Assembly (NCBI GenBank): GCA_014905635.1
Contig: JABVCE010000015.1
Coordinates: 558,001 to 622,000, forward strand
Direction: 5' to 3'
DNA: 64,000 bases
From: Scenedesmus sp. PABB004
Lineage: Eukaryota
Position numbers and translations under genes: made by a program. Positions 45,001-56,115 of the stretch are shown piece after piece (the stretch's first letter is position 1; the number at the start of each line of letters is the position of its first letter). The notes under the pieces are model-generated. The model worked only from the letters and a program-made list of their open reading frames with translations, was not told the DNA's origin and searched no databases.

Positions 45001-48000
45001 GTACTCGCTGCTGGTCGCGCACACGCGCAGGCTGCTGTGCAGGCCCGCCTGGCCGCACGCGGGCGCGCGGGGTTTGGGGGTTTTGGAGGTGGGCGAGGGC
45101 GGCGCGAGGCCGTCAGCGCGCAACGGCAGCGGGGGGCTGGCGCGCGCGCGCCGGCGGGGCGCGCGGCGGGGGCCCGTCGGTGGCGGGAGGGCCCACGAGG
45201 GTTTTGGGCTGAGGGTTCAGCGCGCCGCCGCCGCGCGCCGCCGCACCTGCCACTTGCGGAAGAGGCGCTGGAACTGCTCGTGCACCATGTAGGAGCGCGG
45301 GTCGTTGGCCTGGGGTTTAGGGCGGCGCGGGGCGGGGCAGGGTTTAGCGGAGCGGCGCGGCAGGACCCGACAGGCGCGCACGCCAGGGGGCCCGGCGGCG
45401 GCCGGCCGCGAGGGCGAGGGGCGGCGGCGGCGCGGCGCGCGGCGCGGCGCGCAGGAGGGCGAGGGGGCGGGCGGCGGGGCGGGGCGGCGCGCGGGCGCGG
45501 CTCACCGAGTGCCGCATCGTCTGCTGGCTGCACTCGCGCACGTAGCGGGGCTTGTCAAAGTACCACACCTGGACGCGGCGGGGTTTAGGGGTTGAGGCGA
45601 CAGGGTTTTGGGGGATGAGCGGCGCGGCGGGGCGCGCGCGCGCCGCCGGCCGCCCGCGCTCGCCAAGCTCAGGCCTGCGCCCCGCCCCACACCGCCCTGC
45701 GCGCCGCCGCCCCGCGCGCCTGCAGGGCCTGCAGCAGCAGGGTGAGGAACACGCCCACGCAGAGCGCCTCCTTCTCGGTGACGGTCGGGACCATGCACGT
45801 CAGCGCCGTCACCGCCTGGGAGAGAGGGACGGGCGGGCGGGCGGGCGGCCGGGCGGTGATGGCGGGCGGGGGCGGGTGGTGACGGGGCGGGCGGGGGCGC
45901 AGCAGCAGCACCGCCACGAGCAGCATCAGCAGCAGGCAGCAGGCAGCACAGCAAAAACAACCGTGACGCGCCCACAACAAGCAAAACAACAAACAAAAAC
46001 AAAGCAAGCAGCGCCCACCTGGTCCCAGAAGAAGCCGGCGGGCCAGTGGGGCACGTCGAGGGCGTGCATGGCCATCGTGAAGTGGTGGCAGTACACCGCG
46101 TCGGCGACGGAGCGCGTGAGGCGGGGCACGAGGCAGTGCCGGATGAACGCGGCGTTCTGGGCCTTGATGCGCACGCCCTGCGTGTGGCGGCGGCGGCGGG
46201 GTTGCGGGGTTGAGGGAGTGAGAGGGACAGGCAGGGTTTAGGGTTGAGGGTCTCACGCGGAGGATTGAGGGCGGGGCGAAAGGGTTGAGGGGCGCGGCGC
46301 AGACGCGGAAGCGCAGAGGGGGAGGGGCGAGGCGGCGCGCGCGCGCGGGGCTGGGGCAGGCGGCGCAGGGGCGCAGCGGCCGGAACGAGCAGCGGCGCGG
46401 CCGGCGGGCGCGCGCCTGCTTGACGAAGGTGTCCTTCTGCAGCGCCAGGCGGCGCCGCACCGCCTTGGTGCGCGCGACGAGCGCCTCGCGCTCCGCCCGC
46501 AGCGGGCCCACCAGCGCCTGCCGCGGCGGCGGCGGGCGCGCGCGGCGCGCGGCGGGTGAGCGGCGGCGGCGGCGCCGGCTACGACCCGGTGCACGAGGGG
46601 CCCGCGCGGTGGTGGTGGGGTTTAGCCCTCCTCCCCCCTAAACCTAAACCCCACCTGGAAATGCGCCATCTTGGCCTTTGCCTCGGCCAGGCTGTTCTGC
46701 TTGGCCGTGAGGTTGTCGATGCTGCGGTTCACCTGGTTCTCAGCGTCCTGGGGGTTGGGTTCAGGGTTCAGGGACCAGCGGGGAGGGTCAGGGTTCAGCG
46801 GGGTTGAGGGTTTGAGGGCTTGGTTGCCGAGGGCTCCCTCGAGCGCAGGCAGGGAAGGGCCGCGGCGCACGCGGCGCGCGCGGCCGCGCAGACGGGCGGG
46901 CGCAGCGCAGCGCAGCGCCGCCGCGGGCGCGGGGCACCCACCCGCATGTTGCCGCGGCCGTGGCGCACGCGGTCGAGCGTCTCTTGCGCGCGCGACAGCA
47001 TGCGCGCCTCGCTGTCCACCGCGGCCTGCAGGCCCGACACCTCGCGCGGCCCGGAGCGCAGGTAGGCCTCCATCTCGCTGATGCGCTTGTCGTACCTGTG
47101 CGTTAGTTTAGTGTTGTTATTTTTGGCCGATACGTTATCATGTTATGTCATGACGTTTGTCACGATGGTCGGGCGGGGCGGGCGGGGCAGGCGGGCGGAG
47201 GTGAGTGCGGGGCAGCGGCGCGGGGCAGCGCTGGCGCGGCCGGCGCCGGGCCGCGCCGCCGCGCGGGGTTGTTCTGCGGCCGCTGAGCTCGACCCCCCTC
47301 CGCCCGGGCCGCTCACACGTCGGTGGGGACGTGCACGTCCTCGGGGCGCAGGCTCCAAAAGGCCATGTAGAGCGGCTCCTGGGTTTAGGGGTTTGAGGGG
47401 TGCGGGGCGGGGTTTAGGGGCGAGCGCGCGGCGCGGGGCGGCCGCCGAACACCCTGCCGCACACCCTGCCGCGCCGCGCGCGCCTGCAGGACGGCAAACA
47501 TCGACTCGTCGATGTGCGCGACGCTCGCCGCGACGTCCGCCAGCGTCACCGGCAGCGCCAGCGCGGCCGCGGCGGCCGCGGCGGCGGCCGCGGCGTCGCC
47601 GCCGCCCGCCTTGGCGCCTGCGCGGCGGGCGTCGGCGACGGTGGCCGGGGCGTGCCGACCGGCCGTGCCGCCCGGGCAGCGCCACACGTGGCACGGCGCG
47701 CACCTGGCCCCTCCACGCCCGCCATGGCCTCGCCCTCCTCCGGGAGCTCGCCCTCCTCGCCGCTGGCCGCGGGGCGCGGCGCGCCGCCGCGGCCCTCGGG
47801 CGCGGCGAGCGAGGCGAGCAGCTCGCCGCCGTCGTCGTCGTCGCCGGGCTCGACCGCCGCCGCGCTCGCGGCGGCCTTGGCCTGCGGGTGGTAGGTGGCA
47901 GGCGGGCGGGGCGCGCGTCAGTGGGGGGCAGAGAGCATGAGCACCGGGCCGGCCTGTAGCGGCGTCCCGCCATCCGGCCTGTAGCGGCGTCCCGCCATCC

Positions 48001-54000: not shown

Positions 54001-56115
54001 AGGTCGCACACGCTGCGCGGGGGACGGGGGCGCAGCAGGGCGGCGCGCGGGGGCGGGCGGGGCGGGGCACGTTTGTGGGTCAGCGCGTCAGCGCTTGGGG
54101 AGGGAAGGAGCGGGCGCGGGCTCGGCCAGCGGGGCGCGCGCGCGACGCGCCCGGCCCCGGCCCGCGCCCCGACCTGCAGCTCCCCCCCCCTCCCGCAGCC
54201 GCGCGGCTGCCGCCGCGCCAGCCGCCGCCGCCGCCGCCGCCGCGCGCTGCCGCCGCCGTGCCGGCCGGCGCACCGGTTGGGGTCGAGCTTGAACGCGCCG
54301 ATGAGAGCGCGCAGCTCGCGGCGCAGCGCGGGGAGGTGCCCCGGCGCGAGGCGGCCGCCGCTGAGCAGCGAGGTGAGCAGCTTGGCGTAGCCCTCGTTCT
54401 CCTCGCGCAGCAGGTTGTACCTGAGGAGGGGCAGGGTTTGACAGGGTTTTGAGGGGCAGGGTTTGAGAGAGGCTTTGAAAGTCAGGGCTTGAGAGAGGGC
54501 GAGTCGGGGACGGGCGGCAACGAGGAGGGCGCCGGCCTGTAGCGGCTGCGGGCGGTCCCGGCCTGTCCCAGCAAAAAAAAACCAAGAAGCACACTACGTC
54601 ACTCGGGGTTCCCAGGTGATCCCTCAACCCAGTACTAGTCGAGCCCAACCACGCTTAACTTCCGAGTTCTGATGGGATCGGGTGCTTTCGTGGTGGTGTG
54701 AACGTAGCATGCAGGGTGAAGGAGCGGTGCCGTATATGAGCCGTCGCGCGCGCGGCGGGGGCGGCCCCAAACGGCCCCTCCCCGCGCAGCCGGGCCACGT
54801 GGCAAGACGGGAGCAGGCCAGGCCCGCCAGGCGCTCCGCTGTCGGACGGCGCGTCGTGTAACCAACAACAACAGCGCGTCGATGTGGGACGCTCAACCGC
54901 CCGGAGCCTACCGGGCCCCGCCGTGTAACCACCAACAACAAAGCGCGTCAGCACCCCCAAACACGCCCGCACCCCACCCTCCGCGCGGCCGCGCGCCCAT
55001 AAACCGCGCGATACAAACCGCGCGGCCACACCCCAAACCGCGCGTGCCGAGCCCCAAACCGCGCGCCCCCCGCCCCCGCCCCCGACCGCCGGTGCGCGGC
55101 GCACTCACTTGTCCTGCTTGTAGAAGAGCGCGGTGAACTGGCGGCGCTCGCGGGAGACCATGGCGTTGGCGTTGGCGATCGCGCCCGCGTGCGCCATCAG
55201 CTCCGGCTCCTCCAGCTCCAGCACGCGCCGCCGCGGCAGCTGGCGCGGCGCGCGCGCGCACGGGGCGGGGGGCGGGCGGGCGGGCGTCAGCGGGTCGAGC
55301 TGCCGCTCTCGTTTCTGCCTCTGCCGCCGCCGCCGATGCCACTTCCTGCTGCTGCCCCTGCCGCTTCCCGCAGCTGCCGCTGCCCCATGCTGCCCCTGCC
55401 CCTGCCGCCGCCGCCGCCGCCGCACCTTGCCCTTCTTCACGCACTCGGCCGTGAGCTCCCCCAGGTGCTCCGCCTTGGCCGCCGGCTTGAGCGAGCACAG
55501 CCTGCGTGGCGCGGCGCGGCGCGGCGGCGGCGGCGCCCGGTCGGCCGGCGTCGCGCGCGCGGGCGCACGTCGGCACGCCGCTGCCAGGCTCGCGCCGCCG
55601 CCCTGCGGCCCCGCGCCGCCGCCGCTCCGCCGCCGCCGCCGCTGCCGCTGCCCTGGTCGCGCCGCCGCACCAGATGGCGTTGCCGAGGTCGCTGCTGATG
55701 TCGCCATGCAGCCCCGCGCAGCCGAGTCCGACAAAGAACTTGTCAAGCTCCAGGGAGCCCTGCAGGACCGGCGCGGCGGGGGCCCGTGGGCGTGGCGCGG
55801 CGGCGAGCCGACGGCGACGCGAGCAGCGGCGGGCGCCGGCGCGCCCGGCGGCTCACATCGGCGTACGCCTCGCACAGCTCCAGCAGGAACTGCAGCTGCA
55901 CCTCCGGCGTGATGCCCGGCAGCGTGGCGCCCACCTCCGACGCGACCAGCTGCGGGGCGGCGGCGCGCGGCGCTGAGCGCGGCGGCGGGGCAGCGGCGGG
56001 CAGCGGCCGCGGGCGCCGCGTGCCGCGCGCCGCGCGCTCGCCGCACCTTGCCGGAGTTGAGCTGCTTCACCAGCTCCGGCCCCACCAGCCGCGGCGGGAG
56101 GTCGCAGTCGCCCAT
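42009..56115 (-). CDS. THOC2: THO complex subunit 2, many exons
   Basis: LFYKQDK/YNLLREENEGYAKL, SLIGAFKLDPNRVCDLVLDA, AHLLAKVTHATP, MKPDGANEEDWVTGLANL, FIRHCLVPR, CMVPTVTEKEA, SSEYLQKRNAL..MFP, EDDAREDVKKMAQ; RS-rich tail; 3' end approximate because of frameshifts. Confidence 0.93.
44570..44700 (+). repeat. Imperfect (GAGT)n microsatellite in a THO2 intron
   Basis: Runs of gagtgagtgagt. Confidence 0.85.
48027..48041 (-). terminator. RNA Pol III oligo-T terminator of 5S copy 1
   Basis: TTTTTTTT-CGC-TTTT on the minus strand, 6 nt after the 5S 3' end. Confidence 0.8.
48048..48167 (-). rRNA. 5S rRNA, inside THO2 intron 47882-48649
   Basis: 120 nt ATGCTACGTTCACACCACCACGAAAGCACCCGATCCCATCAGAACTCGGAAGTTAAACGTGG...AGTACTGGGTTGAGGGATCACCTGGGAACCCCGAGTGACGTAGTGT; the ends pair; followed by T8. 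Confidence 0.97.
51843..51944 (+). repeat. (GCG)n trinucleotide tract (~34 units) in a THO2 intron
   Basis: Perfect GCG run between the donor near 51964 and the acceptor near 51752. Confidence 0.9.
54573..54581 (-). terminator. RNA Pol III oligo-T terminator of 5S copy 2
   Basis: A9 on the + strand just downstream of the 5S 3' end. Confidence 0.8.
54591..54710 (-). rRNA. 5S rRNA, inside THO2 intron 54421-55108
   Basis: 120 nt; identical to the 48048-48167 copy except one base (54654 vs 48111); followed by T9. Confidence 0.97.

Follow-up and report, generated by a model that had tools for sequence, protein, structure and literature searches.

The stretch of DNA analysed here, referred to as the window, comprises 64,000 nucleotides (nt) of Scenedesmus sp. 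PABB004 (contig JABVCE010000015.1, positions 558,001 to 622,000 of the forward strand) and carries two 5S ribosomal RNA (rRNA) genes, designated copy A and copy B, that lie within separate introns of one protein-coding gene, THO2. A profile scan of the whole window with the Rfam model RF00001 (gathering score 38 bits) returned two matches above the gathering score, both on the minus strand and each covering the full model (1–120) without truncation (Table 1), which bears out the claim of a first-pass annotation that two complete 5S genes are present. The 120-nt coordinates used below consist of the Rfam match plus the 5′ A, which pairs with the 3′-terminal U. As that annotation also had it, the copies differ from each other by a single base, which falls at position 57. 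The GC content of the two genes is 54–55%, against 78.8% for the window (71–86% in 2-kb steps); outside the 5S-containing unit described below, the hosting introns are 70–80% GC.

No third 5S copy was found in the 64 kb, and the Rfam scan detected no large-subunit (LSU), small-subunit (SSU) or any other rRNA gene there besides these two. The distinction between L-type 5S genes, located in the spacer of the 18S–5.8S–26S ribosomal DNA (rDNA), and S-type genes, located in separate tandem arrays, is described as standard (PMC3692318). Copies A and B lie 6.5 kb apart with conserved THO2 exons between them and thus do not form a tandem array, and since the window contains no LSU or SSU match, they are not rDNA-linked within it. 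Three transfer RNA (tRNA) calls made by ARAGORN (83–95 nt, in GC-rich, coding-like sequence) were set aside as false positives that have no Rfam tRNA support; no credible tRNA was seen by either program beside either 5S gene.

The THO2 locus and its 5S units

The host gene was identified by homology. In a Pfam scan of single exon-sized open reading frames (ORFs), as opposed to the joined protein, the exon directly downstream of intron B matched THOC2_N with 37.2 bits (cutoff 27), and a region further 3′ in the gene matched Tho2 with 20.9 bits, under the cutoff of 23.1. A database search with the THOC2_N exon retrieved six green-algal proteins homologous to THO2, among them two transcriptome-derived entries, one protein from Tetradesmus obliquus and one from Chlamydomonas incerta named ‘THO complex subunit 2’. 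When the proteins P0001 and P0004 were used as tblastn queries, they aligned to a collinear chain of minus-strand exons that runs from 56109 down to 46936. Membership in the THO2 family is supported because this chain leads to proteins containing PF16134, PF11732 and PF11262, one of them bearing the name THO complex subunit 2.

The two 5S genes share the minus strand with THO2 and are therefore in the sense orientation. For both hosting intervals, the alignments predict a spliceosomal intron with GT...AG borders that restore the homology-supported reading frame. Across intron B, P0001 and P0004 read FYKQDK/YNLLREENEGYAKL ungapped (P0001 residues 154/155; the slash marks the junction), with KQDK/YNLLREENEGY aligned over it. 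At intron A, homology stops at ...ELIAGLE (48650; P0001 residue 1056) and restarts in frame with GEEGELPEEGEAM at 47815–47666; the donor GTGCGGCG and the acceptor GCAG are the commonest donor and acceptor in our rough model of THO2. An automatic splice-site picker proposed the pair GCGGCGCA...CGAG for intron A, which we set aside as poorer, keeping GTGCGGCG...GCAG on consensus grounds. Since the reading frame that follows intron A does not extend above 47917, copy A would be intronic whichever acceptor is used. The same picker gave no pair for two other intron gaps. In the rough intron model the remaining introns measure about 97–414 nt, so that the hosts of copies A and B are the two longest. 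The exon chain, all of it on the minus strand, thus upholds the annotated sense nesting of the 5S genes in separate THO2 introns, and the claim that GT-AG borders preserve the THO2 frame holds for intron B through the KQDK/YNLL continuity and for intron A through the in-frame restart.

The locus is also rich in simple repeats. Short GC-rich tandem repeats fill THO2 (104 rows from Tandem Repeats Finder [TRF] in 13 kb), and a perfect (GCG)34 microsatellite (51843–51944, 102 nt, 100% matches) occupies a region that seems, from the alignment of homologues, to belong to an exon or to border one. Several THO2 introns contain, in their 3′ parts, sense-strand C-rich repeats of the form CCCTAAACCCC or CCCTCAAACCC (50630–50674, 54426–54498, 47388–47431 and 46763–46803), which resemble telomere-type repeats (TTTAGGG) and probably act as the pyrimidine-rich tract ahead of the acceptor.

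Table 1. Positions of the THO2 gene, the 5S rRNA genes and associated sequence features in the window.
Feature	Positions	Strand	Details
THO2/THOC2 host gene	46936-56109	-	Minimum extent by homology, about 20 exons; tblastn with P0001, P0004, P0005
THO2 intron A (predicted)	47882-48649	-	768 nt, GTGCGGCG...GCAG, phase 0; hosts copy A; 5S end 166 nt before acceptor
THO2 intron B (predicted)	54421-55108	-	688 nt, GTGAGT...CAG, phase 2; hosts copy B; 5S end 170 nt before acceptor
5S rRNA gene, copy A	48048-48167	-	120 nt, A at position 57; Rfam match 48048-48166, 105.8 bits, E 3.4e-22
5S rRNA gene, copy B	54591-54710	-	120 nt, G at position 57; Rfam match 54591-54709, 107.1 bits, E 1.6e-22
TATA-like TCATATG, copy A	48189-48195	-	-28 to -22; read from sequence
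TATA-like CATATA, copy B	54733-54738	-	-28 to -23; read from sequence
T8 run, copy A	48034-48041	-	Candidate Pol III terminator; after 6 nt, first T is 7th nt past 5S
T9 run, copy B	54573-54581	-	Candidate Pol III terminator; after 9 nt, first T is 10th nt past 5S
Shared unit, copy A	47999-48252	-	About 85 bp upstream + 5S + T-run + downstream motif; tandem 25-nt repeats extend to 47949
Shared unit, copy B	54532-54796	-	Global alignment and blastn
Downstream motif GCCGCTACAGGCCGG, three copies, copy A	47949-48013	-	Within 25-nt tandem repeat
Downstream motif GCCGCTACAGGCCGG, one copy, copy B	54532-54546	-	Marks 3′ edge of unit

Both 5S genes are accompanied by sequences of the kind that RNA polymerase III (Pol III) uses. 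A C precedes the first nucleotide in each copy (position −1; 48168 for copy A and 54711 for copy B), and a TATA-like box lies near −28. For comparison, we collected 27 metagenome contigs that share a 40-nt core of the 5S gene; across 26 aligned 5S upstream regions, −28 to −22 are the most A/T-rich columns. Arabidopsis 5S genes reportedly depend for their transcription on three elements: the internal promoter, a terminator rich in T and, 28 bp upstream, a TATA-like motif (PMC5887818). Both units possess a TATA-like element of the plant type by this standard, since CATAT(G/A) near −28 matches the promoter described there. T-rich sequence follows closely 3′ of each gene, and the oligo-T terminators of the first-pass annotation correspond to the T8 and T9 runs, which we regard as candidate terminators.

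The internal control region is identical or nearly so to that of the related 5S genes, as judged from the alignment. Relative to the majority 5S sequence, defined as the consensus of the 24 metagenome loci that hold the full gene, copy A differs only by T13C and T73C, and copy B by T13C, A57G and T73C. All three positions vary among the 24 loci, and G57 is found in five of them (including L009, L010, L011 and L019). Position 57 falls in what we take to be the box A region, and both states occur among the relatives. At each position that is constant among the relatives, both copies are intact.

The two copies have diverged less within the gene than beside it. Within the 5S body they differ at 1 of 120 nt, and in the 85-bp upstream flank by four substitutions and one indel. 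At the flank rate, about seven differences would be expected in the body, and the Poisson probability of observing one or none is 0.0086 (88-nt flank, five differences); counting substitutions only, it is approximately 0.02 (calculated by hand). The conservation of the body, together with the low GC content that it retains, argues against decaying pseudogenes.

The similarity between the introns extends beyond the 5S genes to a unit of about 255–265 bp that blastn aligns with 90.3% identity over 267 columns (E 7e-102). Read in the sense direction, the unit consists of about 85 bp of upstream sequence, the 5S gene, the T-run, and about 50 bp that end in GCCGCTACAGGCCGG. It is the sole long match between introns A and B and within the window, its edges are sharp, the rest of the two introns is unrelated, and no further copy occurs elsewhere in the 64 kb. 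The suggestion that the 5S genes spread as a unit fits these data. The terminal motif GCCGCTACAGGCCGG has four matches in the window, compared with 0.08 expected; on the copy A side it is part of a 25-nt repeat (TRF, 47949–48012, 2.6 copies, 100% matches). Because the block starts 85 bp upstream of +1 and lacks an A-tail, the copying of the unit appears to have been at the DNA level, with no Pol III transcript as intermediate. Neither a target-site duplication nor terminal inverted repeats were seen at the unit edges in the alignments, in which GC-richness makes short repeats hard to judge. A common origin of the two introns through GCGCGGTTKKGGG-like repeats was considered (seven matches vs 2.8 expected, a count reached by 2 of 100 shuffles) and discounted, because short GC-rich tandem repeats occur throughout the locus.

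Related 5S loci in metagenomes

All 27 metagenome contigs were scanned with Rfam, which in 17 of them placed the 5S gene within the rDNA intergenic spacer, where it adjoins the LSU 3′ end, the SSU 5′ start or both. Nine contigs contain no rRNA gene besides 5S, and several of these are short or are near-copies of rDNA-linked ones. In the one remaining contig, L008, the 5S gene is joined to SSU rRNA, of which a 3′ piece is present, and this is followed by a bacterial-looking coding region; in L020 the 5S gene lies about 800 nt upstream of the LSU rRNA 5′ start, with no 5.8S or internal transcribed spacer between (1–1363, 2175–2293); both contigs are probably assembly chimeras. Among viral contigs, no locus with the 5S core pattern was found.

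In order to examine protein-coding contexts, stop-to-stop ORFs of at least 70 residues were scanned with Pfam, 142 from nine loci and then 89 from six more; these came from a list of 415 ORFs, of which the other 184 or so belong mostly to rDNA-linked loci. One of the 142 ORFs gave a match, a long interspersed nuclear element (LINE; RVT_1 and Exo_endo_phos) in L014, and among the 89 the matches were confined to L013, L015 and L023.

L015 (67% GC) and L023 (69% GC) come from a GC-rich alga and carry one 5S variant in different protein-gene contexts. The unit that they share is about 235 bp or more, its flanks being kept over 45 nt or more on the upstream side and some 70 nt on the downstream side. 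In L015, the end of a kinase gene is followed on the same strand by the start of a Prx5/PrxII-type peroxiredoxin gene, with an exon that corresponds to residues ~30–57 of a structurally solved peroxiredoxin of 164 residues (E 1.4e-8). A GTGAGG donor closes this exon; 108 nt further on, and on the same strand, comes the start of the 5S gene, beyond which the contig runs for another 124 nt. Because the ~105 remaining residues cannot fit before the 5S gene, the latter most likely sits in the sense orientation inside a peroxiredoxin intron. In L023, the 5S gene is antisense and lies about 520 nt beyond an ORF with HMG-box/histone-fold similarity. The nesting of small 5S units in introns is thus probably not unique to the window, with three cases that can be resolved. 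Both contigs also hold a partial second 5S 3′ part (GAGGGATCACCCGGG..CCCCTG; 1857–1980 in L015, reverse strand in L023) some 25–30 nt past the 5S gene, and this remnant belongs to the unit that they share.

A second sequence feature recurs downstream of the gene. In 15 of 26 metagenome loci (L001–L005, L007, L012, L017, L020, L021, L022 and L024–L027), most of them in the rDNA spacer, the motif CTAC(T/A)GG(G/C)C(G/A)G lies +15 to +18 past the 5S gene, and most of the loci that bear it have no T run of four or more. Both intronic units of the window retain a related motif at a position farther downstream. The motif might bind a factor, or act in termination or processing. A hairpin was considered for it and dropped, as the minimum free energy z-scores of the 60–80-nt regions are mostly near 0 (mononucleotide shuffles).

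Probable nested Pol III units and the alternatives

We consider it probable, at roughly 0.7, that copies A and B are two intact and probably functional 5S genes, each a self-contained Pol III type 1 unit nested in an intron of a gene transcribed by RNA polymerase II (Pol II). TFIIIA, TFIIIC and TFIIIB would assemble on the internal control region with the aid of the TATA-like box at −28, and Pol III would initiate at the A that follows C(−1) and terminate at the T-run (T8 or T9). Pol II would transcribe through the unit, which the spliceosome would then discard with the intron, and the host would tolerate its guest because an intron offers a harmless landing place in a gene-dense genome. Both introns would be pre-existing spliceosomal introns of THO2, and the second copy would have arisen when the whole unit, promoter flank included, was copied as DNA into the other intron 6.5 kb away by templated repair, ectopic conversion or a similar route, as opposed to retroposition of 5S RNA. 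The 5S genes of this alga, or of the lineage to which it belongs, would have left the rDNA spacer, the site that they occupy in most relatives, to become standalone dispersed units.

Several points weigh against this interpretation. The acceptor of intron A is less certain than that of intron B, being placed by a low-complexity alignment and splice consensus. The comparison of body and flank involves two copies and few differences, and gene conversion might produce a pattern like that of selection. Expression and splicing at both loci are predictions from sequence. The parallel in L015 has no downstream exon in its contig, and its Pfam Redoxin match reaches 21.7 bits against a cutoff of 26.6. 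Finally, 17 of the 27 related 5S loci are rDNA-linked, and a large array or an rDNA-linked 5S gene outside the window could supply the cell. The frequency of rDNA linkage is the main support for an alternative in which the intronic units are orphons or spare copies, silent or marginal by-products of ectopic copying, while an array or rDNA-linked gene elsewhere provides the 5S rRNA. We judge this unlikely. Both copies are intact at the positions that are constant among relatives and have kept the −28 box, C(−1) and long T-runs; divergence is lower in the 5S body than in its flank, and the body, at 54–55% GC, has withstood surroundings of 78.8%; and the window contains no other rRNA gene. A misplacement of 5S repeats into the THO2 locus during assembly is the least probable of the explanations considered, even though assemblies often go wrong at 5S repeats: there is no N in the window, the copies sit in unique and differing flanks and themselves differ in flank sequence and at one 5S base, and the hosting intervals have proper predicted splice sites and preserve the reading frame.

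The remaining alternatives concern the relation of the unit to its introns. The 5S unit might be the core of a transposon or introner whose insertion created both introns and which is spreading through genes. A unit with the same edges does occur in two otherwise unrelated introns, at similar distances from the acceptor (5S end to acceptor, 166 vs 170 nt), and its hosts are the two longest introns of THO2; a unit of similar size also occupies two gene loci in another GC-rich alga (L015 and L023), and introners are known in algae (PMC9860276). Against such an origin, the edges show no target-site duplication or terminal inverted repeat, there are only two copies in 64 kb, and the introns are unrelated outside the unit, with a splice consensus and C-rich 3′ tracts like those of neighbouring introns. 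With the unit subtracted, they would measure ~420–500 nt, near the 414 nt of another THO2 intron. We therefore find a mobile, intron-forming element improbable. In a further scenario, 5S rRNA would depend on its host, being excised, once Pol II has transcribed THO2, from the spliced intron in the manner of an intronic small nucleolar RNA. Such a scheme would explain the sense orientation, which is observed in all three readable cases (the two in the window and L015), a result with a chance probability of 1 in 8 that is not significant. The Pol III-type upstream and terminator signals that the units retain would be needless for such release, and a full-text literature search found no published precedent. 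The demand for 5S rRNA, moreover, is far above the plausible output of a housekeeping mRNA gene, and this scheme appears very improbable. The analysis gave no sign of the coupling or interference between THO2 transcription and 5S output that the first-pass annotation raised as a possibility.

The nested Pol III units that we favour have partial counterparts in known systems. In the green alga Auxenochlorella, 16–17 standalone dispersed 5S genes are described per haplotype, and a parallel to S. pombe and Yarrowia is drawn (PMC12636532). Yarrowia lipolytica is reported to have 108 dispersed 5S copies, of which 48 are fused 3′ of tRNA genes, and Schizosaccharomyces to have dispersed, non-tandem 5S genes as well (PMC2566860), whereas the 5S genes of Chlamydomonas are described as arrays on chromosomes 1 and 8 (PMC9940879). 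The window resembles the published picture of Auxenochlorella in having single 5S genes with flanks of their own, outside rDNA and arrays, in a GC-rich and compact green-algal genome. It differs in that the THO2 copies are intronic and in sense orientation; the passages on the Auxenochlorella genes give no position relative to protein genes. Unlike the tRNA–5S fusions described for Yarrowia, the 5S genes of the window have no credible tRNA beside them. They are close to rDNA-linked relatives, with one to three differences from the majority 5S sequence of these, the same A/T-rich box at −28 and a related CTAC(T/A)GG motif; they depart from the L-type arrangement by their position in a protein-coding gene and by long T-runs that most motif-bearing rDNA-linked relatives lack.

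Nested Pol III genes are also known. In C. elegans, 44% of 609 tRNA genes are reported to be intronic, which equals the chance expectation, and the host promoter is said to influence them (PMC4999229). Like those tRNA genes, the units studied here would be Pol III genes with internal promoters in Pol II introns, on which an influence of host chromatin is possible; unlike them (type 2 promoter), 5S genes are type 1. With dispersed standalone 5S genes in a green alga (PMC12636532) and intronic tRNA genes (PMC4999229) already in the literature, the novelty implied in the first-pass annotation was overstated. What is new is the nesting of dispersed, standalone 5S units sense-wise in introns, twice in one gene. 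In our full-text literature search, no account of a spliceosomal intron containing a 5S gene came up, with the proviso that the supplements on Auxenochlorella may list locations.

Mobile elements that carry 5S sequences offer a further comparison. Short interspersed elements (SINEs) derived from 5S rRNA are one class of them. Another comprises the Cassandra terminal-repeat retrotransposons in miniature, which are described as having 5S sequences in their long terminal repeats (LTRs) (bioRxiv 10.1101/2023.07.14.548913). As in such elements, the 5S gene would have moved with flanking DNA to new sites, genes included. Unlike Cassandra and the SINEs as they are described, the copies of the window have between them THO2 exons, in which no LTR pair or internal domain is seen, and have no A-tail; in further contrast to 5S-derived elements, the block begins 85 bp upstream of +1, and the 5S body is full-length and canonical, not a degenerate promoter fragment. 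Introners are described as transposon-derived elements that give algae and other eukaryotes new spliceosomal introns (PMC9860276). The two THO2 introns are like introners in that different introns of an alga have sequence in common, and differ from the described elements in that the sharing is limited to part of each intron and that no terminal repeats or target duplications were seen.

Whether 5S rDNA is tandem, rDNA-linked or dispersed has long served as a marker of genome architecture and concerted evolution. A broader conjecture, which we hold to be possible yet rather doubtful, is that in a lineage of very GC-rich green algae 5S genes have moved out of the rDNA spacer and exist mainly as ~250-bp intronic units that are co-directional with housekeeping hosts and multiply, copied whole, from intron to intron. 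If so, tandem arrays and rDNA linkage would be joined by a third, intron-hosted way of organising 5S genes, and co-direction might avoid head-on encounters of Pol II and Pol III or borrow the open chromatin of the host. An alga whose 5S genes were single, co-directional intronic units would offer a natural system in which to study the minimal copy number and flanking signals needed for 5S supply, as well as the coexistence of a Pol III unit with transcription of its host. Were the arrangement limited to one gene, it would amount to a minor annotation note. The −28 box and the CTAC(T/A)GG motif, which are kept from rDNA-linked relatives, point to candidate regulatory elements, and both gene predictors and RNA annotators should expect intronic 5S genes in such genomes.

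Other features of the window and the comparison contigs

The most extreme composition of the window is found at 42001–44000, where the GC content reaches 85.8% and the A/T skew −0.65. One of the ARAGORN calls, a dubious 83-nt tRNA-Arg without Rfam support (42978–43060), falls in this interval.

Two of the metagenome loci place non-LTR retrotransposon sequences near a 5S gene. In L014, a 1417-residue ORF encoding an endonuclease and a reverse transcriptase (1642–5892, minus strand) lies about 1.2 kb upstream of the 5S gene (338–456, minus strand), and in L013 a weak zf-RVT match (255–725, plus strand) lies directly downstream of it (139–257, plus strand). These neighbours recall the 5S-specific LINEs described in zebrafish (PMC5340908). 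In L016, the LSU rRNA gene upstream of the rDNA-linked 5S gene contains six group I introns (282–4947; 72–92 bits each in Rfam), and L020 has one group I intron.

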